Below, one piece after another: positions 1,849 through 24,035 of a stretch of DNA of 27,590 nt (within the stretch, counting starts at the first letter, position 1; the number at the start of each line of letters is the position of its first letter). Under the pieces are notes generated by a model. It saw only the letters and a list, made by a program, of their open reading frames with translations, made no database searches and was not told the DNA's origin. The stretch covers positions 1 through 27,590 of IMG/VR virus record IMGVR_UViG_2551306525_000002, one strand, 5' to 3'. Source of the DNA: a virus. Its lineage: Duplodnaviria > Heunggongvirae > Uroviricota > Caudoviricetes. Both the position numbers and the translations under genes were made by a program.

Positions 1849-2085
1849 ATGCACAGACTACACCGTGAAATTCCGCAGCATAAGAACAACAGCATAAAAC
1901 TGATGGGTATTGTGCATCGACTGCAACAAATAATGGTCAATGAGAATCTGACACCCGCCGAACTGGTCGGGTGTGCTGAAATCGTCAGGGATAATTACGG
2001 GCGGCTGCATGATATAAGCAATCAGAAAGTTGAGGCCTTCACACCGGCGAGAGGTCCGATAATACTGCCGCCACGTCGACCATAG
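1849..2085 (+). CDS. Hypothetical 78-aa protein
   Basis: ATG at 1849 directly follows the TAA stop of the previous ORF (TAAATG). No family recognised. Confidence 0.45.
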   Translation: MHRLHREIPQHKNNSIKLMGIVHRLQQIMVNENLTPAELVGCAEIVRDNYGRLHDISNQKVEAFTPARGPIILPPRRP

Positions 2086-2238
2086 GAAACGCCGCCGGTG
2101 CTGAAACTTGCTTTCAGTGCTGGCGGGGTTGAACAACTCGCCCAGCGAGGCGTTAGCTATGGTTGAAGTTACGATCCTAATACTTTAAGCCAAGATTTTT
2201 GTAATTACATTAGTATTGGCATTTAGGTATTACATTGT

Positions 2239-3861
2239 CTATTTTCTCCTGAAGTTTAATAGCTTTATTATTAACCAAACCAAAACCATGGATGTGGCAA
2301 AGTAAATTGCATCTTCATAGCTTTTGAGTCCAGATTTCTTAATTAAAAGTGACAGGTTTAGTGTTTCAAATAATGGCTTTACTAAAATTGGGGATAATGA
2401 TGTCGATGCAATTAAACCAAAGGCCATTGTTATCTTCTTATTACTTTTGTCATTTAAGTCGGCATCAATTAATTTTAGCACTTGGATTCTTGACTTTATC
2501 AATTCAATGACGCTTTGACGAGCCCTTTTTATATCGATTGAATTTAATGTATTAAATGTGAAGTCTTGTATCTCTCCATACTTCCTTGAGAAAATCCTAA
2601 GCCACTCTTCAAATAAAAGGATGTCTTCTTGTATTTTGGCAAGGCCAAGATGGCTTTTTTCATTTCCAATTTTTTCTATTGTTGAATCATATGAAAAGGA
2701 AATGAAATCTCTAAGATCACTCTTAACCTGATTGTCCCACATCAGATTTTCTTCTGTATATGTCCCGGTAAAAAATTCTTTTTTAACTTTACATGTAAGT
2801 ATAGTCAGTGCTAAAGACTGTTCAGAAAAAAAATTGAAATCATCAAAGGCACGATGATCAATGATTTTCTTGGTGTGCTTTATGTTTGTTAATAGGTGAT
2901 TTTTGCCCAGCAATGAATAAACTAACGACTTATTACTCTGAAAATTGTCAGTGGCATTGTTTTTTTGATTATCGTGCTCGAAGATATAGACGCTTGGCTT
3001 ACCTTGCCAGAAGTTATAAAACTCAGAAAGATTTCTGCCTAAAAGATAATCTTTAATTGTTCTTTTTTTTGTTTTGTCAAATATTATAGCAATCACATAT
3101 CTGGCGATGTCACTTAAATTATGCTGAATTTGCATTAAATTTGTGTAATCAATATATCTACCTGTAACCTTAAATTCACCAACCTCTAGATCTTCAGAGT
3201 TGTCGTTCAATAGTTTTAAACTCTTTTTAATACTACACTTCGCTATCAGTCTACTAAGTAGTGGCATTCCTGAATAGTCTAGCAGTAACGAACTCTTGGC
3301 GAACTCTATGCTGGTAGTAATCGAACTGTTTAGTTTTAAAGGTAGGTTTAAAATGTTTTTTATGAAATCATTCAAATCAACATTGCGTTCCTCAGTGTCA
3401 ACAAAGGTAACATGTGCTATCCCATTTTTATAGAGACGAATAATTGGATGAATAAAAAATTCCACATCGTTATTTTTTACTAGGATTGGCTTTTGACAAC
3501 ATATTATGTTTTCGTAATAATTATTACCTGATGTGTGAAAAAGCTTTCTTTCAGAGAGTCTAATGTTTATACACTGGGAAAAAGCCGTAGCAGTTAGGGC
3601 GCAAACACCTGACGCATGAATCTTATCACCGCCCTCAACAGTAACAGCATTTTCGTTGTTTTCATATCTCATGCTTATTTTTGTTGAGGATGGTGTGTTT
3701 TTTGATAAATATTTGAATGTGTTGTGTGGCGTTAGTATTGCAAGAAACAACCCTGTATTTATCAAGTCTGAACTAAATTTCTCGGCATCTTGATATTCTG
3801 GCGATTGTGTTGTGTATGTATGCCAAATTACGCCTCTTTGAATTTGCATATCACTACCCAT
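2239..3861 (-). CDS. AT-rich cargo protein of unknown function (540 aa), hydrophobic C-terminus; candidate phage-exclusion/defence gene at the tin/old locus
   Basis: Long uninterrupted ORF in a region visibly much more AT-rich than flanking phage genes. Lies between gene A and cos, where P2 carries tin and old, on the same leftward strand as those genes. No Walker A motif, so not an Old-type ATPase. Two hydrophobic segments near the C-terminus (AFGLIASTSLSPILV, ATSMVLVWLIIKLL). True start may be M1 (3861) or M5 (3849). Confidence 0.75.
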   Translation of the reverse strand: MGSDMQIQRGVIWHTYTTQSPEYQDAEKFSSDLINTGLFLAILTPHNTFKYLSKNTPSSTKISMRYENNENAVTVEGGDKIHASGVCALTATAFSQCINIRLSERKLFHTSGNNYYENIICCQKPILVKNNDVEFFIHPIIRLYKNGIAHVTFVDTEERNVDLNDFIKNILNLPLKLNSSITTSIEFAKSSLLLDYSGMPLLSRLIAKCSIKKSLKLLNDNSEDLEVGEFKVTGRYIDYTNLMQIQHNLSDIARYVIAIIFDKTKKRTIKDYLLGRNLSEFYNFWQGKPSVYIFEHDNQKNNATDNFQSNKSLVYSLLGKNHLLTNIKHTKKIIDHRAFDDFNFFSEQSLALTILTCKVKKEFFTGTYTEENLMWDNQVKSDLRDFISFSYDSTIEKIGNEKSHLGLAKIQEDILLFEEWLRIFSRKYGEIQDFTFNTLNSIDIKRARQSVIELIKSRIQVLKLIDADLNDKSNKKITMAFGLIASTSLSPILVKPLFETLNLSLLIKKSGLKSYEDAIYFATSMVLVWLIIKLLNFRRK

Positions 3862-4234
3862 TGTTATGATTAAGTAATTTTCCTAGTAATGGGCGCGATA
3901 GTAACATTAGATAGAGTGAAAGTGAAAGCCTCCCAAAGTGCCATCAGCCGCCAAACTACAGGCTGTTGATGTGGATATCGTGAGATGTTACATATGACGC
4001 TGACAATCCCTGATTAACACCGAGATTTAGTAACTTGGTCAATGCCATGGTAATGACTTCAAATATCCTGTTGTTAACAGCGCTGATTATTAAGCTGCTA
4101 TCCAGTATTATTGGTGCAATGCGCATCTCTTAACCAAAATAAAACCAACACAAACCAATAATTTGAGTCAGAGTTATCGTTATTTAACCATGAATGCATA
4201 AGGTGCATGGTTTTGCATGAGTCAGCCTTGCACG

Positions 4235-4256
4235 CTCTGGCCGTGAGCGGCCAGAG
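4235..4256. other. GC-rich perfect hairpin (9-bp stem CTCTGGCCG / CGGCCAGAG, 4-nt loop) in the cos-proximal region
   Basis: Perfect inverted repeat read directly from the sequence. No T-run on either side, so not a typical terminator. Possibly part of the terminase recognition region. Confidence 0.4.
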
Positions 4257-4314
4257 CTGGCGCGGATCCAAAATGGTCACGCAACTGCATTAAACCCGAC
4301 CTATAAAGCGGGCA

Positions 4315-4333
4315 GGCGAGGCGGGGAAAGCAC
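4315..4333. other. cos: cos site core: 19-nt sequence GGCGAGGCGGGGAAAGCAC matching the P2 cohesive end
   Basis: Exact 19-mer as I recall the P2 cohesive end, located just downstream of portal gene Q as in P2. Confidence 0.6.
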
Positions 4334-4475
4334 TGCGCGCTGGCGGTGGTGCTGATTTTATTTTTTCAGCGTCTCAGCGCGTCGTGACGGCGTTTGGATT
4401 GTGCGCCGGGGCGTTGGTGTGTCTGCGGGGTGTTTTGTGCGGTGGTGAGCGTGTGAGGGCGTGATGACGGGGTGT

Positions 4476-4497
4476 AAAAAAGCCGCCCGCAGGCGGC
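4476..4497 (-). terminator. Rho-independent terminator for the leftward P-Q operon
   Basis: On the minus strand: GCCGCC-TGCG-GGCGGC hairpin followed immediately by TTTTTT, starting 6 nt after the Q stop codon. Confidence 0.7.
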
Positions 4498-4502
4498 GAT
4501 GT

Positions 4503-5537
4503 TCAGCCGTTGTCGGTGTCCAGTGAGTAGTTTTTAAAGCGGATGACCTCCTGACCGAGCCAGCCGTTTATCTCGCGGATCCTGTCCTGTAACGGGATAA
4601 GCTCATTGCGGACAAAGACCTTTGCCACTTTCTCAATATCACCCAGCGACCCGACGTTCTCCGGCTTGCCGCCCATCAACTGAAAAGGGATGCGGTGCGC
4701 GTCCAGCAGGTCTGCGGCGCTGGCTTTTTTGATATTAAAAAAATCGTCCTTCGTTGCCACTTCACTGAGCGGGATAATTTTAATGCCGTCGGCTTTCCCT
4801 TGCGGGGCATAGAGAAACAGATTTTTAAAGTTGTTGCGGCCTTTCGACTTCACCATGTTTTCGCGGAGCATTTCGATATCGTTGCGATCCTGCACGGCAT
4901 CAGTGACGTACATGATGTATCCGGCATGTGCGCCGTTTTCGTAATACTTGCGGCGGAACAGCGTGGCCGACTCATTCAGCCAGGCAGAGTTAAGGGCGCT
5001 GAGATATTCCGGCAGGCCGTACAGCTCCTGATTAATATCCGGCTCCAGCAGGTGAAACACGGAGCCGGGCGCGAAGGCTGTCGGCTCGTTGAAGGACGGC
5101 ACCCACCAGTAAACATCCTCTTCCACGCCACGGCGGGTATATTTTGCCGGTGAGGTTTCCAGTCTGATGACCTTACCGGTGGTGCTGTAACGCTTTTCCA
5201 GAAACGCATTACCGAACACCAGAAAATCCAGCACAAAACGGCTGAAATCCTGCTGGGAAAGCCACGGGTGCGGGATAAACGTTGAAGCCAGAATATTACG
5301 TTTGACGTAAATCGGTGAGCTGTGATGCACGGCAGCACGCAGGCTTTTTGCCAGACCGGTAAAGCTGACCGGCGGCTCATACCATCTGCCGTTACTGATG
5401 CACTCGACGTAATCCAGAATGTCACGGCGGTCGAGTACCGGCACCGGTTCGCCAAAGGTGAATGCCTCCATTTTCGGGGCGCTGGCGGTCATTTTTTTTG
5501 CCGCAGGTTGCAGTGTTTTCCCATTTTTCTTGCTCAT
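4503..5537 (-). CDS. Q: Portal protein gpQ (344 aa)
   Basis: Length identical to P2 gpQ and sequence recognised as P2-type portal. Start ATG overlaps the P stop (ATGA). Confidence 0.9.
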   Translation of the reverse strand: MSKKNGKTLQPAAKKMTASAPKMEAFTFGEPVPVLDRRDILDYVECISNGRWYEPPVSFTGLAKSLRAAVHHSSPIYVKRNILASTFIPHPWLSQQDFSRFVLDFLVFGNAFLEKRYSTTGKVIRLETSPAKYTRRGVEEDVYWWVPSFNEPTAFAPGSVFHLLEPDINQELYGLPEYLSALNSAWLNESATLFRRKYYENGAHAGYIMYVTDAVQDRNDIEMLRENMVKSKGRNNFKNLFLYAPQGKADGIKIIPLSEVATKDDFFNIKKASAADLLDAHRIPFQLMGGKPENVGSLGDIEKVAKVFVRNELIPLQDRIREINGWLGQEVIRFKNYSLDTDNG

Positions 5538-7309
5538 CAGTAAAACTCCAGAATGGTGGATGTCAGCGGGGTGCTGATACCGGCGGTGAGTGGCTCATTT
5601 AACAGGGCGTGCATGGTCGCCCAGGCGAGGTCGGCGTGGCTGGCTTCCTCGCTGCGGCTGGCCTCATAGGTGGCGCTGCGTCCGCTGCTGGTCATGGTCT
5701 TGCGGATAGCCATAAACGAGCTGGTGATGTCGGTGGCGCTGACGTCATATTCCAGACAGCCACGGCGAATAACGTCTTTTGCCTTGAGCACCATTGCGGT
5801 TTTCATTTCCGGCGTGTAGCGGATATCGCGCGCGGCGGGATAGAACGAGCGCACGAGCTGGAACACGCCGACACCGAGGCCGGTGGCATCAATACCGATG
5901 TATTCGACGTTGTATTTTTCGGTGAGTTTGCGGATGGATTCCGCCTGAGTGGCAAAGTCCATGCCTTTCCACTGGTGACGCTCAAGTATTCTGAATTTGC
6001 CACCGGCCACCACCGGCGGTGCCAGCACCACGCATCCGGCGCTGTCGCCACGGTGTGACGGGTCGTAACCAATCCATACCGGGCGGGAGCCGAACGGATT
6101 GGCGGCAAACGGCGCATAGTCTTCCCATTCTTCCAGCGTGTCGACCATGCAGCGTTGCAGCTCCTCAAACGGGAACACCGACGCCTTGTCGTCAACAAAT
6201 TCACACATGAACAGGTTTTTAAAATCGTCGGCGCTGTTTTCGCGTTTGAGCTGCTCAATGTCGAACAGCGTGCAGCCGCCTTTCAGGGCGTCCTCAATGG
6301 TGACAATCTGCCGCCACTGGCCGTCCGCACAGAGAAGACCTCCGGCAAGGGCGTTATGACTGACGTCGATTTCCACGCGTTCGGCGGCGCTGGCGCGTCC
6401 CCGGTTAAACAGTTCACCCGACCAGAACGGGTAGGCGTCGTGCGCCAGCGTGGACGGGGTGGAGAAATAGGTCGAGCGCAGGTGGCTCTGTGAGGCCATA
6501 CCTGATGCCACCTTACGCAGTACCTGAAAATTCGGGATCCAGAAAATCTCGTCGACGTACAGGTCGCCGTTATGGCTCTGCGCGGTGTTGGAGTTGGTGC
6601 CGAGAAAAATCAGTTTTGCGCCGTTATTGCCCAGGACAATCGGGTCACCGGTCAGGTCAACGTCAACCAGACGGGCAAAGGCGATGATGTATTCGCGGAA
6701 CACATACGCCTGCGTTTTACTGGCCGACAGAAAAATCTGGTTATGGCCGGTTTTCAGGGCGCGCAGCAGCGCCTCGCGGGAAAAATAAAACGTTGCGCCA
6801 ATCTGGCGGGATTTCAGGATATCGCGGATGCGGTGCTCAAGCCCGGCGCGATACCAGTGCAACTGATATTCGAAAGACTGCTCAAAGAAAATCTGCTCCA
6901 GCTTTTCGATGGCCTCGTCACTGAAAAAATTCTTTTTCGGTTTGCGCCGCCCGCCTTTGTTGCGGTTAGCGACGTTCGGATTAAGGTCTGCCTCGTTGCC
7001 GGTCTGGCTGTAGCGGTTTACCCGTGCCAGTCGTTCAATCTGGCGTCCGAGCAGGTCAATTTCCTTGAAGTCACCGCCGGTTTTCTGCGGTTTGATGATG
7101 AGCTGGGTCAGCCGCGCTTCCAGGCTCATTTCGACACGGCTGATGGGGGCAACACTGTCCCAGCCGTCGCGCTGTTTCCAGCTCTGCACCGTCGGGCGTT
7201 TCATCTGCAACATGGCGGCAATCTGCGGCACGGAAAACCCCTGCCAGTACAGCAGCGCCGCCTGACGACGCGGGTCGTGTAAAAGAGTGGTGTCTGTGGT
7301 GATGGTCAT
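5537..7309 (-). CDS. P: Terminase large (ATPase) subunit gpP (590 aa)
   Basis: ORF track gives 600 aa from an upstream start; the ATG at 7309 (MTITTDTTLL...) with a GAGGT Shine-Dalgarno 5 nt upstream gives the P2 length of 590 aa. Divergent from O as in P2. Confidence 0.88.
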   Translation of the reverse strand: MTITTDTTLLHDPRRQAALLYWQGFSVPQIAAMLQMKRPTVQSWKQRDGWDSVAPISRVEMSLEARLTQLIIKPQKTGGDFKEIDLLGRQIERLARVNRYSQTGNEADLNPNVANRNKGGRRKPKKNFFSDEAIEKLEQIFFEQSFEYQLHWYRAGLEHRIRDILKSRQIGATFYFSREALLRALKTGHNQIFLSASKTQAYVFREYIIAFARLVDVDLTGDPIVLGNNGAKLIFLGTNSNTAQSHNGDLYVDEIFWIPNFQVLRKVASGMASQSHLRSTYFSTPSTLAHDAYPFWSGELFNRGRASAAERVEIDVSHNALAGGLLCADGQWRQIVTIEDALKGGCTLFDIEQLKRENSADDFKNLFMCEFVDDKASVFPFEELQRCMVDTLEEWEDYAPFAANPFGSRPVWIGYDPSHRGDSAGCVVLAPPVVAGGKFRILERHQWKGMDFATQAESIRKLTEKYNVEYIGIDATGLGVGVFQLVRSFYPAARDIRYTPEMKTAMVLKAKDVIRRGCLEYDVSATDITSSFMAIRKTMTSSGRSATYEASRSEEASHADLAWATMHALLNEPLTAGISTPLTSTILEFY

Positions 7310-7482
7310 GAATACCTCGCCGTGATGAATACACGGCAAGGCTACTGAGTCGCGCCCCGCGATTCGCTAAGGTGCTGTTGTGTCAGTGATAAGCCATCCG
7401 GGACTGATGGCGGAGGATGCGCATCGTCGGGAAACTGATGCCGACATGTGACTCCTCTAATCACTATTCAGGACTCCTGACA
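7310..7482. promoter_or_regulatory. Divergent P / O intergenic region, expected to hold the Ogr-dependent late promoters for the P-Q and O-N-M-L operons
   Basis: Position only, from the known P2 late-promoter arrangement. I could not find a clean TGT-N12-ACA element by eye. Confidence 0.4.
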
Positions 7483-8337
7483 ATGGCAAAAAAAGTCTCA
7501 AAATTCTTTCGTATCGGCGTTGAGGGTGACACCTGTGACGGGCGTGTCATCAGTGCGCAGGATATTCAGGAAATGGCTGAAACCTTTGACCCGCGAGTCT
7601 ATGGTTGCCGCATTAACCTGGAACATCTGCGCGGCATCCTGCCTGACGGTATTTTTAAGCGTTATGGCGATGTGGCCGAACTGAAGGCCGAAAAGATTGA
7701 CGATGATTCGGCGCTGAAAGGCAAATGGGCGCTGTTTGCGAAAATCACCCCGACCGATGACCTTATCGCGATGAACAAGGCCGCGCAGAAGGTCTATACC
7801 TCAATGGAAATTCAGCCGAACTTTGCCAATACCGGCAAATGTTATCTGGTAGGTCTGGCCGTCACCGATGACCCGTCAAGCCTCGGCACGGAATACCTGG
7901 AATTCTGCCGCACGGCAAAATACAACCCTCTGAACCGCTTCAAATTAAGCCCTGAAAACCTGATTTCAGTGGCAACGCCTGTTGAGCTGGAATTTGAAGA
8001 CCTGCCTGAAACCGTGTTCACCGCCCTGACCGAAAAGGTGAAGTCCATTTTTGGCCGCAAACAGGCCAGCGATGATGCCCGTCTGAATGACGTGCATGAA
8101 GCGGTGACCGCTGTTGCTGAACATGTGCAGGAAAAACTGAGCGCCACTGAGCAGCGCCTCGCTGAGATGGAAACCGCCTTTTCCGCACTTAAGCAGGAGG
8201 TGACTGACAGGGCGGATGAAACCAGCCAGGCATTCACCCGCCTGAAAAACAGCCTCGACCACACCGAAAGTCTGACCCAGCAGCGCCGCAGCAAGGCCAC
8301 CGGCGGTGGCGGTGACGCCCTGATGACGAACTGCTGA
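7483..8337 (+). CDS. O: Capsid scaffolding protein gpO (284 aa)
   Basis: ATG at 7483 (MAKKVSKFFRIG...) gives the P2 gpO length of 284 aa; the upstream extension from 7417 in the ORF track is rejected. Confidence 0.88.
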   Translation: MAKKVSKFFRIGVEGDTCDGRVISAQDIQEMAETFDPRVYGCRINLEHLRGILPDGIFKRYGDVAELKAEKIDDDSALKGKWALFAKITPTDDLIAMNKAAQKVYTSMEIQPNFANTGKCYLVGLAVTDDPSSLGTEYLEFCRTAKYNPLNRFKLSPENLISVATPVELEFEDLPETVFTALTEKVKSIFGRKQASDDARLNDVHEAVTAVAEHVQEKLSATEQRLAEMETAFSALKQEVTDRADETSQAFTRLKNSLDHTESLTQQRRSKATGGGGDALMTNC

Positions 8338-8395
8338 CCGGCGTCAGTCAGTCCGGGAAAACCTTCACGATTAACCCTTAATTTCAGGAAAAACT

Positions 8396-9469
8396 ATGCG
8401 CCAGGAAACCCGCTTTAAATTTAATGCCTACCTGTCCCGTGTTGCCGAACTGAACGGCATCGACGCCGGTGATGTGTCGAAAAAATTCACCGTTGAACCG
8501 TCGGTCACCCAGACCCTGATGAACACCATGCAGGAGTCCTCTGATTTTCTGACCCGCATCAACATTGTGCCGGTCAGCGAAATGAAAGGGGAAAAAATTG
8601 GTATTGGTGTCACCGGCTCCATCGCCAGCACCACCGACACCGCCGGTGGCACCGAGCGTCAGCCGAAGGACTTCTCGAAGCTGGCGTCAAACAAGTACGA
8701 ATGCGACCAGATTAACTTCGATTTTTATATCCGCTACAAAACGCTTGACCTGTGGGCGCGTTATCAGGATTTCCAGCTTCGTATCCGTAACGCCATTATC
8801 AAACGCCAGTCCCTTGATTTCATCATGGCCGGTTTTAACGGTGTGAAGCGTGCCGAAACCTCTGACCGCAACAGTAATCCGATGTTGCAGGATGTGGCGG
8901 TCGGCTGGCTGCAGAAATACCGCAATGAAGCCCCGGCGCGCGTGATGAGCAAGGTCACTGACGAGGAAGGGCGCACCACCTCTGAGGTCATCCGCGTGGG
9001 CAAGGGCGGTGATTATGCCAGCCTCGATGCACTGGTAATGGATGCGACCAACAACCTGATTGAGCCGTGGTATCAGGAAGACCCTGACCTTGTGGTGATT
9101 GTGGGACGTCAGCTACTGGCGGACAAGTATTTTCCCATCGTCAACAAGGAGCAGGACAACAGCGAAATGCTGGCCGCTGACGTCATCATCAGCCAGAAAC
9201 GCATCGGCAACCTGCCAGCGGTACGCGTCCCGTACTTCCCGGCGGATGCGATGCTCATCACGAAGCTGGAAAACCTGTCCATCTACTACATGGATGACAG
9301 CCATCGCCGCGTGATTGAGGAAAACCCGAAACTCGACCGCGTGGAGAACTACGAGTCAATGAACATTGATTACGTGGTGGAGGACTACGCCGCCGGTTGT
9401 CTGGTGGAAAAAATTAAGGTCGGTGATTTCTCCACACCGGCTAAGGCGACCGCAGAGCCGGGAGCGTAA
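8396..9469 (+). CDS. N: Major capsid protein gpN (357 aa)
   Basis: Length identical to P2 gpN; position after O. Confidence 0.9.
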   Translation: MRQETRFKFNAYLSRVAELNGIDAGDVSKKFTVEPSVTQTLMNTMQESSDFLTRINIVPVSEMKGEKIGIGVTGSIASTTDTAGGTERQPKDFSKLASNKYECDQINFDFYIRYKTLDLWARYQDFQLRIRNAIIKRQSLDFIMAGFNGVKRAETSDRNSNPMLQDVAVGWLQKYRNEAPARVMSKVTDEEGRTTSEVIRVGKGGDYASLDALVMDATNNLIEPWYQEDPDLVVIVGRQLLADKYFPIVNKEQDNSEMLAADVIISQKRIGNLPAVRVPYFPADAMLITKLENLSIYYMDDSHRRVIEENPKLDRVENYESMNIDYVVEDYAAGCLVEKIKVGDFSTPAKATAEPGA

Positions 9470-19485: not shown

Positions 19486-19756
19486 CTTAGGCTTCAGTAA
19501 TTTGGTTAGCACAACCCCTTTGATAAACATACAGCTACAGTATTGCTTTTATAAGGAGCGTAGTTTCAATAGGACACCCCAAACGTTAGTCGGGAAAAGC
19601 CGACTGAAAAAAACTTGTGTGGACAAGTAGTGTCCATTTAATGCCATTTTTAGATTAAAATGTGCCATTTTGAGGGTATTCTTAAACGTGCATAACGTTC
19701 TGATTTATCATACACAGAGCCTTATCATTTGAAACCATTCCGATGTACATCAAACA

Positions 19757-21292
19757 ATGATTACAAGAGAAATTATGACACCGCCAACCAAAATTGATAC
19801 ATCAAGTCTACTTACCATATTGGGCGTTATTGCTGCTGTATGGGCCCTTATTACGCCAAACGCTCGACTACGTTTAAGGTTCTGCCTAGCGTGGTGGGAT
19901 TGGGTAATTGTTGGGTTTGCATTCTTACTAAGCAATTATTTGGTGTTTGCACCGGCTTTAAAATCACTAGACTTATATTTTAGCTTTGGCCCCTGGAAAT
20001 GGGGATTAGATAGTTCAAGTGCCGTATACCTGATATCACTCGCAGTTGCTATTTACATTTTATTTCGCTTAAAAAACCCTAAACTCTCAATTGGAAGAAC
20101 AGGGATATTTCTAGAGTTAGTGGAAAATTTGCACCTTACTAAACGATACGACGATCTGGCACAATTGTTGGCACCTCAACTAGAAAAATTAATATCAATA
20201 ATTGATAGACCTGTGAAGAATCGACTTTGTGATAAGATAGCTAACAATCTCCGCATCTCTAATCGCGAGACAGCTGCTGAACATGCACATGAAGCATTGT
20301 TAAATATTGTCTCATCACCTGAACTTACCAATCACTTTGCACTTGCGCACCCATCCCTCTGCCTTGAGTTAATCAAGATCGAGCCAATAGTTCGTTCTGA
20401 CTTTACTTCTAATTTTATCAGTGCATTACTTGGTTCACCTAACAGTCGTCTATATGTTGAGCTTAAAAATAATCTTAACGTTAGTCGAGGACATCGTTTA
20501 TTGATTCCAAAAAACAACCGTATATTACATTTTTTCTTTTCCAATGCTAAGTTTGCAGCTGATTTAGCAATATACCGTGATATCGGTGACTATCTCTACT
20601 GGAGGTTAGATGAAGATGAAAAAATTATTGCTGCACTTAATAAGTCTTTAGGTTCCTATTACGATGCTTCAAAATATAAATGTCCTATTTACTCAGGTGT
20701 CACGCTGTTTGAAATTATGGTTCATGAAGGTATTCACCAGGGTCTTCAGGATCATTTATGGTTGCATTACTATTCATATTTCGCAAGGAAAATTATAAAG
20801 AATATGAATAGGCAATCAGATGAATATAGTGGTGAATGGGAAACACCTTTTCACTTCCTTCTCTGTCATTTATTTAGCGTCGCTACAGATTGGGCAGAAC
20901 AATGCGAATGGATAGATGAAAAGGAGATTCCTCAAGAAAATAAAGAAATAGATAATTTCGATCTTCATTATATTTCAAAAGAGGCTACCAAATTACTTGG
21001 TGCTATGCTGCAGTTGGTTATGCCTAATAAAAAACTCACCTTGAAATCTAGAAAGCATATTCTTGATATAGTTGTATCTTGTTATATTAGGTTGAAAAGG
21101 AATAAAAAATTAAAAGACGTCGCTGACTCATTATTAATTTTCACCACTAGAGGCGAAGGTAATTCAGCACCGCCGCATTATCGTAGAGAACTTCTAGAAA
21201 TATTCAATACCCTTGATGATTATCGATTAAGAACTGATGCCCCGGAATTCCGAGCAGCTATAGAGTCTGCTATTCAAGCAAGGCCGAATTAG
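19757..21292 (+). CDS. AT-rich cargo protein of unknown function (511 aa) with three predicted N-terminal transmembrane helices and a large soluble C-terminal domain; candidate defence/exclusion gene at the Z/fun locus
   Basis: Long ORF in a strongly AT-rich island between G and FI. Hydrophobic segments LLTILGVIAAVWALI, WWDWVIVGFAFLLSNYLVFAP and AVYLISLAVAIYILF. Start may be M7 (19775, purine-rich AAGAGAAA just upstream) rather than 19757. No family recognised. Confidence 0.75.
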   Translation: MITREIMTPPTKIDTSSLLTILGVIAAVWALITPNARLRLRFCLAWWDWVIVGFAFLLSNYLVFAPALKSLDLYFSFGPWKWGLDSSSAVYLISLAVAIYILFRLKNPKLSIGRTGIFLELVENLHLTKRYDDLAQLLAPQLEKLISIIDRPVKNRLCDKIANNLRISNRETAAEHAHEALLNIVSSPELTNHFALAHPSLCLELIKIEPIVRSDFTSNFISALLGSPNSRLYVELKNNLNVSRGHRLLIPKNNRILHFFFSNAKFAADLAIYRDIGDYLYWRLDEDEKIIAALNKSLGSYYDASKYKCPIYSGVTLFEIMVHEGIHQGLQDHLWLHYYSYFARKIIKNMNRQSDEYSGEWETPFHFLLCHLFSVATDWAEQCEWIDEKEIPQENKEIDNFDLHYISKEATKLLGAMLQLVMPNKKLTLKSRKHILDIVVSCYIRLKRNKKLKDVADSLLIFTTRGEGNSAPPHYRRELLEIFNTLDDYRLRTDAPEFRAAIESAIQARPN

Positions 21293-21299
21293 GTAAATC

Positions 21300-21322
21300 A
21301 ACCACCTGCATAGCGGGTGGTT
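21300..21322 (+). terminator. Weak putative terminator hairpin after the 511-aa gene (AACCACC-(9 nt)-GGTGGTT followed by a short T stretch)
   Basis: 7-bp perfect stem starting 8 nt after the stop codon; only 3 T residues follow. Confidence 0.35.
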
Positions 21323-21565
21323 TAGACATAGACCTCTAAGTATGCCTGAAAGCAGAGGTACCTCTAAGTTTCGATGTCTAGGTGTTGATCGGCTGTAATC
21401 TGGTAACCAGGTCAAGCTTAAAATTTTCTCAACATAAACAAGTAGTATTTCAAATATTGAACCATACTGACTCCCCCACTTTTTATAAGATTATGGAAAT
21501 TTTTTGTACCAGTAAGTTCGAAAATTAGTGTTGTTCTCATCAGTCGTTATGAAAAATTTTGAACT

Positions 21566-21587
21566 TCCGCTCCTCGCTCACAGCGGA
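21566..21587. repeat. Palindromic boundary motif, copy 2: TCCGCT-(10 nt)-AGCGGA
   Basis: Inverted repeat related to copies at 19462, 21608 and 22628 (CTCGCTCACAGCGGAC here versus CTCGCTCAAAGCAGAC at 22636). Confidence 0.55.
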
Positions 21588-21607
21588 CCCTCAACTCAGC
21601 CAGCAAT

Positions 21608-21631
21608 GTCCGCTGCTTGCCAGGAGCGGAC
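21608..21631. repeat. Palindromic boundary motif, copy 3: GTCCGCT-(10 nt)-AGCGGAC
   Basis: 20 of 24 positions identical to copy 1; lies between the convergent 511-aa and 250-aa cargo genes. Confidence 0.6.
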
Positions 21632-21667
21632 GTAGTTTAATCTCTACTATGTTAATAAGTAATGATA

Positions 21668-22420
21668 TTAAATAAACTCATCATTAAGAAAGCCTGTTGA
21701 TAAAAAGTTCTGAATGTGAAGATAAAAAGAATAACGTGTATCTTCATTTTTTTTCTTCGATGTGTTGAGTTCCGGCTTGAGATTGTAAATAAGATGAGAC
21801 TCTATAAAGTCAAGTAATTCTATAGCTAATGATGTCGGACTAATCCAATCCAGTGAAATATAGTCTTTTCCATCATAAAACCATGGGGTGGCTCTATATA
21901 TCCTCTTTTTCATATTATTATATTTGGGATCTAGCAACTTTAAGGCAGCCGAGTGACCGCCAATAAACCTTTTGGAGTTAACGGTTTTTCCGACATAAAC
22001 AATGTGTTCATTGGTATCATCCATATCAGAGCATGATATTAAATAGATTGGTAATGAGGGTTTGGGAGGAATGCCGATTTTTTTTTCGATTATCACCCTC
22101 TCCTTTTCATGAATAAAAATGGGAAGCTTTCCATTAAATTCACTCTTCACATTCCCCAAGAATGAATCTGTATTTTTCCTAGCTTCATGCAGTCCGACCC
22201 AGTTAAGACTATTGACCTGATGGAGAGGACAGCATTCCTGTATTGATAACCAAGCCTCCCAATCACTTGATGGATTATCACTACAGTTTTGGCCCGAAAA
22301 TCTGTGTGAAAGGAATTTTCTCCCCTCGAACCAGGCTTGCAACGGAATATATATGTCTGAAGTGTTCTGCTCGACTTCAATTAATGGACTGTTAGTATCC
22401 AAATTTATGCCTCCTTTCAT
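21668..22420 (-). CDS. AT-rich cargo protein (250 aa) with a C-terminal GIY-YIG-like nuclease signature; candidate exclusion/defence nuclease at the Z/fun position
   Basis: Minus-strand ORF just upstream of FI, where P2 carries Z/fun in the same orientation. Residues ~124-213 read PIY-(13 aa)-HIVYVGKTVNSKRFIGGH...AIELLDFIESHLIYN, resembling the GIY / YVGK / R / H / E / N pattern of GIY-YIG nucleases (compare the I-TevI and UvrC N-terminal motifs as I recall them). The N-terminal ~110 aa are unassigned. Confidence 0.7.
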   Translation of the reverse strand: MKGGINLDTNSPLIEVEQNTSDIYIPLQAWFEGRKFLSHRFSGQNCSDNPSSDWEAWLSIQECCPLHQVNSLNWVGLHEARKNTDSFLGNVKSEFNGKLPIFIHEKERVIIEKKIGIPPKPSLPIYLISCSDMDDTNEHIVYVGKTVNSKRFIGGHSAALKLLDPKYNNMKKRIYRATPWFYDGKDYISLDWISPTSLAIELLDFIESHLIYNLKPELNTSKKKNEDTRYSFYLHIQNFLSTGFLNDEFI

Positions 22421-22627
22421 TAAGTATTTGCATAAAAATATCTAAAAATAAGAAATTCTTTAATTAAGATTATAAGTTAAATATAAGTACCAATGAAGCT
22501 TTGAATGATTTCGCATCAATAAATTAATTCTAACACAATACCATATAATAACGAAAAATGTCACTACTTGGTCGTTGAGGATATGACATTGCAATTAAAG
22601 AGAAAACCTTAACACACTATCTATAAC

Positions 22628-22651
22628 GTCCGTTTCTCGCTCAAAGCAGAC
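22628..22651. repeat. Degenerate copy 4 of the boundary motif (GTCCGTTTCTCGCTCAAAGCAGAC); hairpin no longer perfect
   Basis: 19 of 24 positions identical to copy 2 when aligned; located in the upstream region of the 250-aa minus-strand gene. Confidence 0.45.
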
Positions 22652-22719
22652 TGTCAGATTTGATAGCATTTGGGCTATGTAAATTGTCAGGCGGAAAATG
22701 AGTGAGTACAAATCAGGAC

Positions 22720-22750
22720 AGGCGGGCGAATTGTCCGCCTTTTCTTTATC
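22720..22750 (+). terminator. Putative plus-strand intrinsic terminator about 95 bp upstream of FI
   Basis: 8-bp stem (AGGCGGGC / GTCCGCCT, one G-U pair), 5-nt loop, followed by TTTCTTTATC. Confidence 0.4.
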
Positions 22751-22844
22751 TGTTGTTTCATCCCCTGACCAGCCAGGACAAATAGCATCTCATGCCCTGC
22801 ACAACTGAAAATACCACTCACCCATTAACCACGGAGTTAAACGG

Positions 22845-24035
22845 ATGAGTGACTATCATCACGGCGTGCAGGTGCTGGAGATTAACGAGGGCACCCGCGT
22901 CATTTCCACCGTATCCACGGCCATTGTCGGCATGGTCTGCACGGCCAGCGATGCGGATGCGGAAATCTTCCCCCTCAATAAACCGGTGCTGATTACCAAT
23001 GTGCAGAGCGCAATTGCAAAGGCCGGTAAAAAAGGCACGCTGGCGGCATCGTTGCAGGCCATCGCCGACCAGTCAAAACCGGTCACCGTTGTCGTGCGTG
23101 TGGAAGACGGCACCGGCGAAGACGAAGAAACGAAACTCGCGCAGACTGTTTCCAATATCATCGGAACCACCGACGAAAACGGTCAGTACACCGGACTGAA
23201 AGCCCTGCTGGCGGCGGAGTCGGTAACCGGTGTTAAACCGCGTATTCTCGGTGTGCCGGGGCTGGATACCAAAGAGGTGGCTGTTGCACTGGCATCCGTC
23301 TGTCAGAAGCTGCGCGCTTTCGGATATATCAGCGCATGGGGCTGTAAGACCATTTCCGAGGTGAAAGCCTACCGCCAGAATTTCAGCCAGCGTGAGCTGA
23401 TGGTCATCTGGCCGGATTTCCTCGCATGGGATACGGTCACCAGTACCACTGCCACCGCGTATGCCACCGCCCGTGCGCTGGGTCTGCGCGCTAAAATCGA
23501 CCAGGAGCAGGGCTGGCATAAAACGCTGTCCAACGTCGGGGTGAACGGTGTTACCGGCATCAGCGCCTCTGTATTCTGGGATTTGCAGGAGTCCGGCACC
23601 GATGCTGACCTGCTTAACGAGTCAGGCGTCACTACGCTGATTCGCCGCGACGGTTTCCGCTTCTGGGGTAACCGTACCTGCTCTGATGACCCGCTGTTTC
23701 TCTTTGAAAACTACACACGCACCGCGCAGGTGCTGGCCGACACGATGGCTGAGGCGCACATGTGGGCGGTGGACAAGCCCATCACCGCAACGCTGATTCG
23801 CGACATCGTTGACGGCATCAATGCCAAATTCCGTGAGCTGAAAACAAACGGCTATATCGTGGATGGCTCATGCTGGTTCAGCGAAGAATCCAACGATGCG
23901 GAAACCCTCAAGGCCGGAAAACTGTATATCGACTACGACTATACCCCGGTGCCTCCTCTTGAAAACCTGACCCTGCGCCAGCGTATTACCGATAAATACC
24001 TGGCGAATCTGGTCACCTCGGTTAACAGCAATTAA
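22845..24035 (+). CDS. FI: Tail sheath protein gpFI (396 aa)
   Basis: Length identical to P2 gpFI; sequence recognised as a contractile-tail sheath protein. Confidence 0.9.
   Translation: MSDYHHGVQVLEINEGTRVISTVSTAIVGMVCTASDADAEIFPLNKPVLITNVQSAIAKAGKKGTLAASLQAIADQSKPVTVVVRVEDGTGEDEETKLAQTVSNIIGTTDENGQYTGLKALLAAESVTGVKPRILGVPGLDTKEVAVALASVCQKLRAFGYISAWGCKTISEVKAYRQNFSQRELMVIWPDFLAWDTVTSTTATAYATARALGLRAKIDQEQGWHKTLSNVGVNGVTGISASVFWDLQESGTDADLLNESGVTTLIRRDGFRFWGNRTCSDDPLFLFENYTRTAQVLADTMAEAHMWAVDKPITATLIRDIVDGINAKFRELKTNGYIVDGSCWFSEESNDAETLKAGKLYIDYDYTPVPPLENLTLRQRITDKYLANLVTSVNSN

Follow-up and report, generated by a model that had tools for sequence, protein, structure and literature searches.

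What does the AT-rich gene between gene A and the cos site of a P2-like prophage encode, and is it a defence gene? We addressed this question in a window of 27,590 nucleotides, the whole stretch of viral DNA that was analysed. The order in the window is gene A (ending at 1542), the cargo gene (2239-3849), cos (4315-4333) and the Q portal gene (4503-5537), with two small ORFs at 1543-2085 between the end of A and the cargo gene. The cos at 4315-4333 is the P2-type 19-mer GGCGAGGCGGGGAAAGCAC. This gene order agrees with the view of an earlier note on this DNA that the cargo sits at the A-Q/cos hotspot of a P2-like prophage, the site of tin and old in P2. Validated defence systems have come from this hotspot (PMC9122126; PMC13586616), which also holds non-defence cargo such as partition systems and cytolethal distending toxin (PMC9122126). 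Our best explanation, which we hold to be about evenly poised between right and wrong, is that the gene is horizontally acquired single-gene hotspot cargo encoding a stand-alone anti-phage protein of an uncharacterised family, serving inter-phage competition.

The minus-strand ORF at 2239..3861 in the list of ORFs with translations was confirmed at 540 aa. In 19 of 23 aligned family members the start falls at the site of its Met5, and for the near-identical E. coli 1217KP prophage the RefSeq annotation is 536 aa long; the coding sequence is therefore likely to be 2239..3849 on the minus strand (stop codon counted in). The true start is thus most likely at 3849, giving a 536-aa protein, an assignment drawn from the ORF list, the family alignment, RefSeq and PHROG 24946. 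The ATG at 3861 is an alternative upstream start that leads to the 540-aa form. As claimed earlier in favour of horizontal acquisition, the gene is compositionally foreign, with a GC content of 0.33 (GC3 0.32) against ~0.54 in the flanking genes (A, 0.54; Q, 0.53); the P gene has 0.58 and the whole window 0.515. A foreign GC content was found in other hosts too (0.39 vs 0.64 in Pseudomonas; 0.32 vs 0.60 in Aeromonas).

The foreign segment runs from ~2159 to ~4195, and both 2087-2158 and the DNA from 4178-4196 onward match P2/186-like phages. At the left junction (2087..2158, plus strand), the end of the core replication-side segment, phage 186 and further 186/P2-like phages share ~71 conserved nt with the window. 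The right junction (4196..4502, plus strand) is the conserved P2-type cos region, 77-88% identical to P2-like phages, and contains cos at 4315-4333 and a terminator after Q at 4482-4497. The cassette-specific 3' flank (2159..2238, minus strand) bears an AT-rich palindrome at 2189-2220, downstream of the stop codon, which is possibly a weak terminator. On the other side of the gene, sequence comparison and a promoter scan characterised a cassette-specific AT-rich upstream region (3850..4195, minus strand), whose ~60 nt adjoining the start codon are kept in the Enterobacter orthologue. The scan found no convincing sigma-70 promoter on the minus strand upstream of the cargo gene, and no Rfam family was found in 1900-4600. 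A non-conserved 56-aa ORF (3956-4126) lies within the upstream region; the 56-aa and 60-aa ORFs at 3956-4280 had neither family matches nor a counterpart upstream of the homologues checked. The 13-nt tandem repeat GTGAAAGTGAAAG, placed earlier at ~3915-3927, exists one base away from there, at 3916..3928 on the plus strand. Nothing points to a function for it: the repeat occurs once in the window and is not conserved in the upstream region of the 68%-identical Enterobacter orthologue.

To describe occupancy of the hotspot, we compared 24 loci with close homologues (36-100% identity), one of them a 53-residue fragment at a contig end. Q and gpA flank the homologue in 20 of the 23 whole-gene loci, in one conserved orientation; the remaining three have Q only (two loci) or gpA only (one locus). 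The cos site is present in all 23 but one, the locus without Q, and in a Pantoea lineage the gene lies on the opposite side of cos. Among 5,426 complete E. coli genomes, the window allele was found in one and a second allele in 12. Occupancy was therefore variable across P2-like prophages, with either allele in 13 of 5,426 genomes and on backbones whose gpA proteins are only 36-100% identical, which bears out the idea of a variable cassette between conserved A and Q; the gene is not common to all P2-like phages. Judged from gene order, the cargo is a single-gene arrangement. No conserved partner ORF was found upstream of the gene among the homologues checked, and in the Enterobacter orthologue zero ORFs separate the gene from gpA.

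Single-gene carriage bears on one selfish reading of the locus, in which the protein, as a toxin, addiction module or anti-defence factor, would help to maintain the prophage stably or to counter the host's immunity. Hotspot cargo could be of this kind, as membrane-active proteins are often toxic and P2-like phages occasionally carry anti-defence genes (PMC13586616). However, anti-defence genes are rare, occurring in only 28 of 1,511 P2 elements (PMC13586616). The lack of a conserved adjoining partner (antitoxin) gene speaks against this reading, as do homologues in chromosomal islands outside prophages. Known anti-defence proteins are, in addition, mostly small and soluble. We regard a selfish role as very unlikely.

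Consistent with the earlier failure to assign the protein, it matched nothing in the profile libraries used (PADLOC 2023, Pfam 2025 and NCBIfam 2026), all three being empty at E <= 10. None of the 5,027 PADLOC-DB v2.0.0 models matched the window protein or 78 relatives. Pfam and PADLOC searches with 79 family members gave scattered, chance-level matches only (PADLOC singles at E >= 0.006), and Pfam returned nothing for 10 members of greater length or divergence, one of them a 743-aa form extended at the N-terminus. When the 536-aa protein was compared by tblastn with 50,697 phage records, a set that includes Peduovirus P2, no match was obtained at E <= 1e-3. PDB sequence-profile searches with two alignments gave no significant match. 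With the whole chain as query, a PDB structure search gave no close match to the model and Foldseek against BFVD no match at E <= 1e-3; since these queries were whole multi-domain chains, a known sensor or enzyme fold in one lobe could be missed. By profile, the protein belongs with PHROG 24946 (function unknown; E = 0, 1138 bits), its residues 1-540 aligning with all 540 positions of the profile. The family comprises at least 228 clusters at 50% identity, and its range includes Pseudomonas, Aeromonas and a Candidatus Goldiibacteriota MAG; annotations of its members are all 'hypothetical', and none is tied to defence by experiment or annotation. A second, word-indexed homologue search with a deep alignment returned close relatives only, and no locus emerged from two scans across species-representative genomes. 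Two short members (266-340 aa class) were considered as signs of an independent C-terminal module; they proved to be an IS-truncated gene and a split gene, and that idea was abandoned.

The word 'unrecognised', applied to the gene earlier, holds insofar as no known family matches it; it does not hold for the literature, where a 50%-identical allele already stands in the catalogue of Rousset et al. 2022. This raises the question of whether the family is already a validated defence system, named outside the three profile libraries. New E. coli prophage systems appeared in large numbers between 2023 and 2026, and such a finding would be a naming matter, compatible with our best explanation. We nevertheless consider it rather improbable. 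The accession, the PHROG id and peptide fragments had no match in a main-text literature search, the DefensePredictor and Vassallo 2022 supplements gave nothing, and no family member was named in any source searched. The Rousset allele, system #84, appears in the catalogue table only and is absent from the tested systems (PMC9122126).

The AlphaFold model of the cargo protein (pLDDT 93.5, pTM 0.88) and family conservation suggest a cytoplasmic portion joined to a membrane anchor. Residues 1-362 (2764..3849, minus strand) form a predicted cytoplasmic alpha/beta region, delimited by the model and by conservation over 79 sequences, in which no signal peptide is predicted. In the model it consists of three lobes (~1-105, 110-216 and 219-360), among which hhalign found no internal duplication. 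Of the polar residues that are invariant across the family, most lie in the third lobe (W281, P285, Q295, R333 and D337 over the 79 sequences). A long-helix stalk, assigned from the model and conservation, follows at residues 363-471 (2437..2763, minus strand). It carries conserved Q374, E378 and Y382 at four-residue spacing, the window protein having Asp at E378 and Phe at Y382, and a conserved G425-E426 turn; its last helix (438-484) is continuous with the first membrane segment in the model. No nuclease, ATPase or HEPN motif was found in the protein.

The two C-terminal hydrophobic stretches that had been read earlier as a membrane anchor are likewise predicted here, from hydrophobicity and conservation. 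The first helix, residues 472-494 (476-498 in 540-aa numbering; 2368..2436, minus strand), bears the family motif L-T-x-x-F-G-x-x-A...P (F477, G478, P492) and is the top-conserved segment of the protein. The second, residues 510-535 (514-539 in 540-aa numbering; 2245..2322, minus strand), is followed by the basic tail RRK. In the family as a whole, the tail carries on average 2.3 K+R and 0.24 D+E, and the loop between the helices has a net acidic character, so that an N-in/C-in hairpin would fit the positive-inside rule. This topology is uncertain, because the first hydrophobic segment, which has a proline in it, is short and because Phobius gives one TM helix only for the sister allele WP_001165947 (Rousset et al., PMC9122126).

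The neighbourhoods of distant homologues also bear on function. One homologue lies directly downstream of full-length Dsr1 (PADLOC E = 0), and another within a type I R-M operon, with GmrSD_N/HEPN genes on one side and hsdR on the other. A further homologue is flanked by a PDC-S31 gene and by SRA-HNH, GmrSD-like and GajB-like genes; another adjoins an Mrr-like type IV enzyme and a PIN toxin-antitoxin pair, and one distant homologue is at a prophage edge. Outside Enterobacterales, recognised defence genes are at most two genes away in 4 of 8 contexts, as a raw tally. The other four comprise two in mobile elements and two with neither kind of neighbour, one in Aeromonas beside parC/parE and one at an ABC-transporter locus. 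The presence of defence genes beside several distant homologues lends the anti-phage inference some strength.

These contexts also help to weigh two further readings. In the first, superinfection exclusion, an inner-membrane protein would keep out the DNA of incoming phages, or stop their early steps, while sparing the host, as classical prophage functions of the Sie/Sim/Cor type do. The predicted membrane anchor and carriage by a prophage in an exclusion-gene locus agree with it, and P2's own accessory genes do exclude other phages (PMC9122126). By contrast, distant homologues are found in chromosomal defence islands and an R-M operon, not prophages, so a general immune gene fits better than a phage-specific entry block. 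Moreover, ~470 of the 536 residues would form a large conserved cytoplasmic assembly, unlike known exclusion proteins, which are small membrane proteins. Exclusion is unlikely. In the second reading, the gene has no part in defence: it would encode a gated channel for ions or solutes, or some other membrane factor acting in fitness or lysogenic conversion, and the lysogen would benefit for reasons other than phages. We think this reading improbable as well.

Returning to an anti-phage protein as the preferred reading, we infer a division into sensor and effector, oligomerisation and membrane disruption, with abortive infection probably being the mode of action, to judge from the locus, the architecture and the neighbours of distant homologues. 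An infection cue would be sensed by the ~470-residue cytoplasmic portion, made up of the three alpha/beta lobes and the long helical stalk. The signal might pass from the conserved third lobe through the stalk and the G-E turn to the C-terminal two-helix membrane hairpin. The hairpin, probably oligomerised, would then perturb or open the inner membrane, and this disruption could halt phage development, as in abortive infection. A more ambitious proposal, which we advance tentatively and with some doubt, makes the protein the founding member of a new, broad immune family of single polypeptides. In such a family a three-lobed sensor would gate a membrane hairpin in the manner of a CorA-style pore, although non-homologous to it, membrane potential would collapse on a phage cue, and the genes would spread via P2-like prophages, other mobile elements and the chromosomal defence islands of several phyla.

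The A-Q hotspot is a proven source of immune systems, and much of what it carries has yet to be named. The window gene represents a family of at least 228 clusters that Pfam, NCBIfam and PADLOC miss and that has a confident model without a close PDB match, and its product is a good candidate for a new defence protein. If the family defends against phages, defence catalogues would gain a new single-gene system, some of the 'dark' cargo of phage hotspots and defence islands would be accounted for, and there would be a compact one-polypeptide model of a cytoplasmic sensor coupled to a membrane effector. If it does not, it would stand as a useful counter-example wherever function is deduced from hotspot position alone.

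Among systems already described, system #84 in Table S5B of Rousset et al. 2022 is an unnamed single protein of the P2 hotspot (WP_001165947) with 43 occurrences in 18,150 loci (PMC9122126). It resembles the window gene in locus, single-gene arrangement and length, with 50% identity over the full length; both proteins are without a Pfam domain and have a predicted C-terminal TM segment. The window allele is divergent from it and rarer (1 vs 12 of 5,426 complete genomes). P2 old and tin are likewise variable accessory cargo next to cos; they differ from the window gene in having no sequence similarity to it, and the window protein has a membrane anchor. The empty tblastn search showed no similarity to P2 Tin or another sequenced-phage protein at E <= 1e-3. 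As the earlier note stated, there is no Walker A, both [AG]x4GK[ST] and looser GxxGK patterns being absent from the protein, which is therefore not an OLD-type ATPase-TOPRIM nuclease. No C-terminal TOPRIM was matched by Pfam at E <= 10, and the C-terminus consists of the helical stalk and the hydrophobic helices.

CorA-type membrane effectors are linked to type III CRISPR systems, and we considered whether the window protein belongs to CorA/Mrs2/ZntB. Membership was rejected: the G-M-N (or G-x-N) signature expected where the first TM helix ends is absent (no G[MVI]N in the protein), and the family has F-G-x-x-A...P there. Pfam CorA was not found in the 79 members at E <= 0.1, and when the family profile was aligned with E. 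coli CorA, hhalign gave a probability of 0.55%. The cytoplasmic part of the window protein is also far larger, with three lobes over ~360 residues, and the likeness is one of layout, not membership. The TM effectors of CBASS, retron and TIR systems are examples of membrane-acting abortive infection (cited in PMC9122126). Although no sequence or fold relationship to any membrane-acting Abi protein was detected, the window protein shares with these a hydrophobic C-terminal module on a non-enzymatic cytoplasmic part, and its family shares their carriage by prophages or defence islands. No signalling enzyme accompanies the gene, so the cargo protein would have to do its own sensing.

The AT-rich cargo gene that the earlier note had placed on the minus strand between gene A and cos is present in the ORF list of the window (2239..3861, minus strand, 540 aa). 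Because 19 of 23 aligned family members start at the fifth residue of this ORF, and because the RefSeq annotation of a 99.9% identical prophage in E. coli 1217KP gives a cargo protein of 536 aa, we took the coding sequence as 2239..3849 and number residues accordingly unless stated otherwise. Its composition is sharply more AT-rich than that of its flanks, as had been claimed. GC is 0.33 (GC3 0.32), compared with 0.54 in the replication-side gene A, 0.53 in the portal gene Q, 0.58 in the terminase gene P and 0.515 over the entire window. Gene A ends at 1542 and is followed by two small ORFs (1543-2085), the cargo gene, cos and Q (4503-5537). The cos, a 19-mer of P2 type (GGCGAGGCGGGGAAAGCAC), was read from the sequence at 4315-4333. 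The two small ORFs, 1543-1848 (101 aa) and 1849-2085 (78 aa), have a near-core GC of 0.47-0.50 and match PHROGs 27273 and 11386, both of unknown function. They are missing from an Enterobacter prophage with an orthologous cargo gene and are therefore not partners of it.

The limits of the foreign segment were located by comparison with related phages. At the left edge, phage 186 and many phages and prophages of the P2/186 type share 91-96% identity with 2087-2158 and give no further match to the right of 2158 at megablast level. At the right edge, similarity to P2-like phages restarts at 4178-4196 and continues via cos into Q. The foreign segment thus spans about 2159-4195, roughly 2 kb, and holds one gene with about 345 nt upstream and about 80 nt downstream. 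ORFs of 56 and 60 aa in the upstream region have no family matches and no counterpart upstream of the homologues checked, and a scan of the cargo locus found no Rfam family. The direct repeat that had been pointed out upstream of the gene, GTGAAAGTGAAAG, does exist, at 3916-3928, as a single occurrence in the window; it is not kept upstream of a 68%-identical Enterobacter orthologue, and from the sequence we see no reason to assign it a function. An 18-nt direct repeat, TTAACCAAACCAAAACCA, occurs at 2271-2288 and 4130-4147 (copies 89% identical, 1,859 nt apart). Most of the gene falls between the copies, the first of which is within the coding sequence for the final hydrophobic helix and the second ahead of the gene, close to where the cassette ends on the right; they may reflect chance in AT-rich sequence or be a relic of the recombination event by which the cassette was inserted.

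Close homologues were collected at 24 loci from an annotated E. coli genome, public assemblies, a plasmid record and IMG/VR; one is a 53-residue fragment at a contig end, leaving 23 with a whole gene. The gene lies between Q and gpA in 20/23, always co-directional with Q, and beside Q alone in two and gpA alone in one. A cos was found in 22 of the 23, the exception being the locus without Q, and in most it falls between Q and the cargo gene. In the window and most other compared loci the gene sits between cos and gene A, whereas in a Pantoea lineage of 186-like prophages (L010 6001-8054, L036 861-2900 and L037 7001-9054) it sits between Q and cos; one cargo family therefore occupies either side of the cohesive end. 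As the gpA proteins of carrier prophages are merely 36-100% identical to that of the window, the gene moves between P2-type and 186-type backbones. It is also rare. The window allele occurs in 1 and a second, 50% identical allele in 12 of 5,426 complete E. coli genomes, in agreement with the proposed variable cassette between A and Q, and tblastn against 50,697 sequenced phage records found no homologue. AT-richness is retained in every high-GC host (gene versus flank GC, 0.39 and 0.64 in Pseudomonas, 0.32 and 0.60 in Aeromonas, 0.35 and 0.55-0.58 in Serratia). One locus, L023 (NZ_CP134387.1), is an 88-kb record typed as an E. coli plasmid; it carries a P2-like element with integrase and cox, gpA, the second cargo allele, portal, terminase and capsid genes, and a holin at the edge of the viewed stretch. 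A nearly identical cargo gene is also present on that strain's chromosome (NZ_CP134384.1).

The window contains a second island of AT-rich cargo at 19500-22800 (GC 0.33-0.39, against 0.54-0.58 in its flanks). It is placed after the tail-fibre genes, which extend to 19400, and before the sheath gene (22845-24035), at the P2 Z/fun position. Its ORFs, 19757..21292 on the plus strand (511 aa) and 21668..22420 on the minus strand (250 aa), have no Pfam or PADLOC match; their counterparts are PHROGs 13820 and 16890, neither with a known function. They may be another uncharacterised defence candidate within the same prophage.

With the cut-off relaxed to E <= 10, Pfam, NCBIfam and PADLOC still give no match for the cargo protein, which matches PHROG 24946 (function unknown) over its full length. 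A word-indexed search returned 24 homologue clusters, all annotated "hypothetical" and restricted to Enterobacterales (Escherichia, Enterobacter, Lelliottia, Klebsiella, Cronobacter, Serratia and Pantoea). An exhaustive HMM search extended this to 228 representatives of 50%-identity clusters at E <= 1e-3 (140 at E <= 1e-10), mostly of 510-570 aa and aligned end to end. Named members, from Pseudomonas knackmussii, P. kurunegalensis, P. hunanensis, Aeromonas veronii, A. jandaei and a Candidatus Goldiibacteriota MAG, are likewise "hypothetical" in every case. Seventy-nine aligned members gave no convincing match to Pfam or PADLOC, and sequence-profile searches of the PDB gave none. The family is unnamed and broad.

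A confident AlphaFold2 model built from the 79-sequence alignment (mean pLDDT 93.5, pTM 0.88) predicts three alpha/beta lobes (about residues 1-105, 110-216 and 219-360), with no internal duplication detectable among them, and a stalk of long helices (366-396, 400-421 and 425-435). A 47-residue helix (438-484) then runs on into the first hydrophobic segment and is joined by a short loop to a final hydrophobic helix (509-535) with a basic tail. The two C-terminal hydrophobic stretches had been noted before, and lie at 476-498 and 514-539 in 540-aa numbering. Near-invariant positions (P135, G143, W281, P285, Q295, R333, D337, L348, G425, E426, F477, G478 and P492) cluster in lobe 3, the stalk turn and the first hydrophobic helix, the most conserved segment of the protein. 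Since the tail is basic (family mean 2.3 K+R versus 0.24 D+E), the loop between the helices slightly acidic across the family and an N-terminal signal peptide absent, an N-in/C-in hairpin would fit. For the sister allele, WP_001165947, Phobius gives just one TM helix (Rousset et al. 2022; PMC9122126). Pattern searches upheld the claim that the window protein lacks a Walker A motif, and the other simple catalytic patterns tried were also absent. Foldseek of the model against BFVD gave nothing at E <= 1e-3, and a whole-chain search of the PDB gave no close structural match. Likeness to CorA is confined to layout; membership was rejected, as the GMN motif and any Pfam CorA match are absent and hhalign against E. 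coli CorA gave a probability of 0.55%.

Several distant homologues have defence genes as neighbours. On a Pseudomonas-type contig (L014) the homologue directly follows a 1,270-aa protein matching PADLOC Dsr1 end to end (E = 0). In Candidatus Goldiibacteriota it lies within a type I R-M operon, in the order hsdM, DUF6119, hsdS, GmrSD_N, HEPN_RiboL-PSP, homologue, hsdR. A 743-aa member separates a PDC-S31/DUF2971 gene from a group of SRA-HNH, GmrSD-like (HEC-06/Orf5) and GajB-like genes, and the P. knackmussii homologue lies next to genes for an Mrr-like type IV enzyme and a PIN/FitA pair. Another member is at a prophage edge, and one, IS-truncated, is among integrases. Two contexts, in Aeromonas (beside parC/parE) and at an ABC-transporter locus, have no defence or mobile-element neighbours. 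As a set of single cases, these contexts suggest an association with defence genes. Upstream of the Dsr1 gene, L014 1-5006, a metagenome contig, holds four co-directional genes (465+, 565, 668 and 151 aa) without precomputed Pfam match, the latter three also without PADLOC match; they may form another system of unknown kind in the same island. In Aeromonas veronii (L016), the source record calls no genes across the 3 kb directly upstream of the homologue (5995-9001), a stretch that contains ORFs of 420 and 353 aa.

We lean somewhat towards defence of some kind, counting in the rival that the product is an exclusion protein. The fuller proposal, a single-gene protein of anti-phage or inter-phage competition with a sensor, stalk and hairpin that acts by membrane perturbation, is the reading with the best support and appears to us evenly poised between right and wrong. 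Less likely rivals are a non-defence membrane or channel cargo, a toxin or anti-defence role, and a family that has already been validated under another name. In this scheme, a large cytoplasmic assembly of the protein would sense a trigger, the helical stalk would couple it to the hairpin effector, and the latter, probably once oligomerised, would most likely perturb the membrane, an abortive infection.

Compared with known systems, the A-Q region adjoining cos is a published P2 defence hotspot (PMC9122126; PMC13586616). The gene had been called unrecognised, which holds for Pfam, NCBIfam and PADLOC and not for its sister, since WP_001165947, the second E. coli allele, is catalogued as system #84 (Rousset et al. 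2022, Table S5A/B; PMC9122126), entered as one protein lacking any Pfam domain, with "1 TM" and 43 occurrences. The sequence of WP_001165947 is absent from the table of tested systems in that study (PMC9122126). We found no mention of its accession or the PHROG id in the other literature searched and no trace in the supplements of DefensePredictor and Vassallo et al. 2022. The description given in the earlier note is borne out; with a well-known locus and idea and a catalogued sister allele, the surprise is limited. The family, whose surroundings are rich in defence genes in unrelated bacteria, is a solid candidate for a new kind of defence protein and would be cheap to test.
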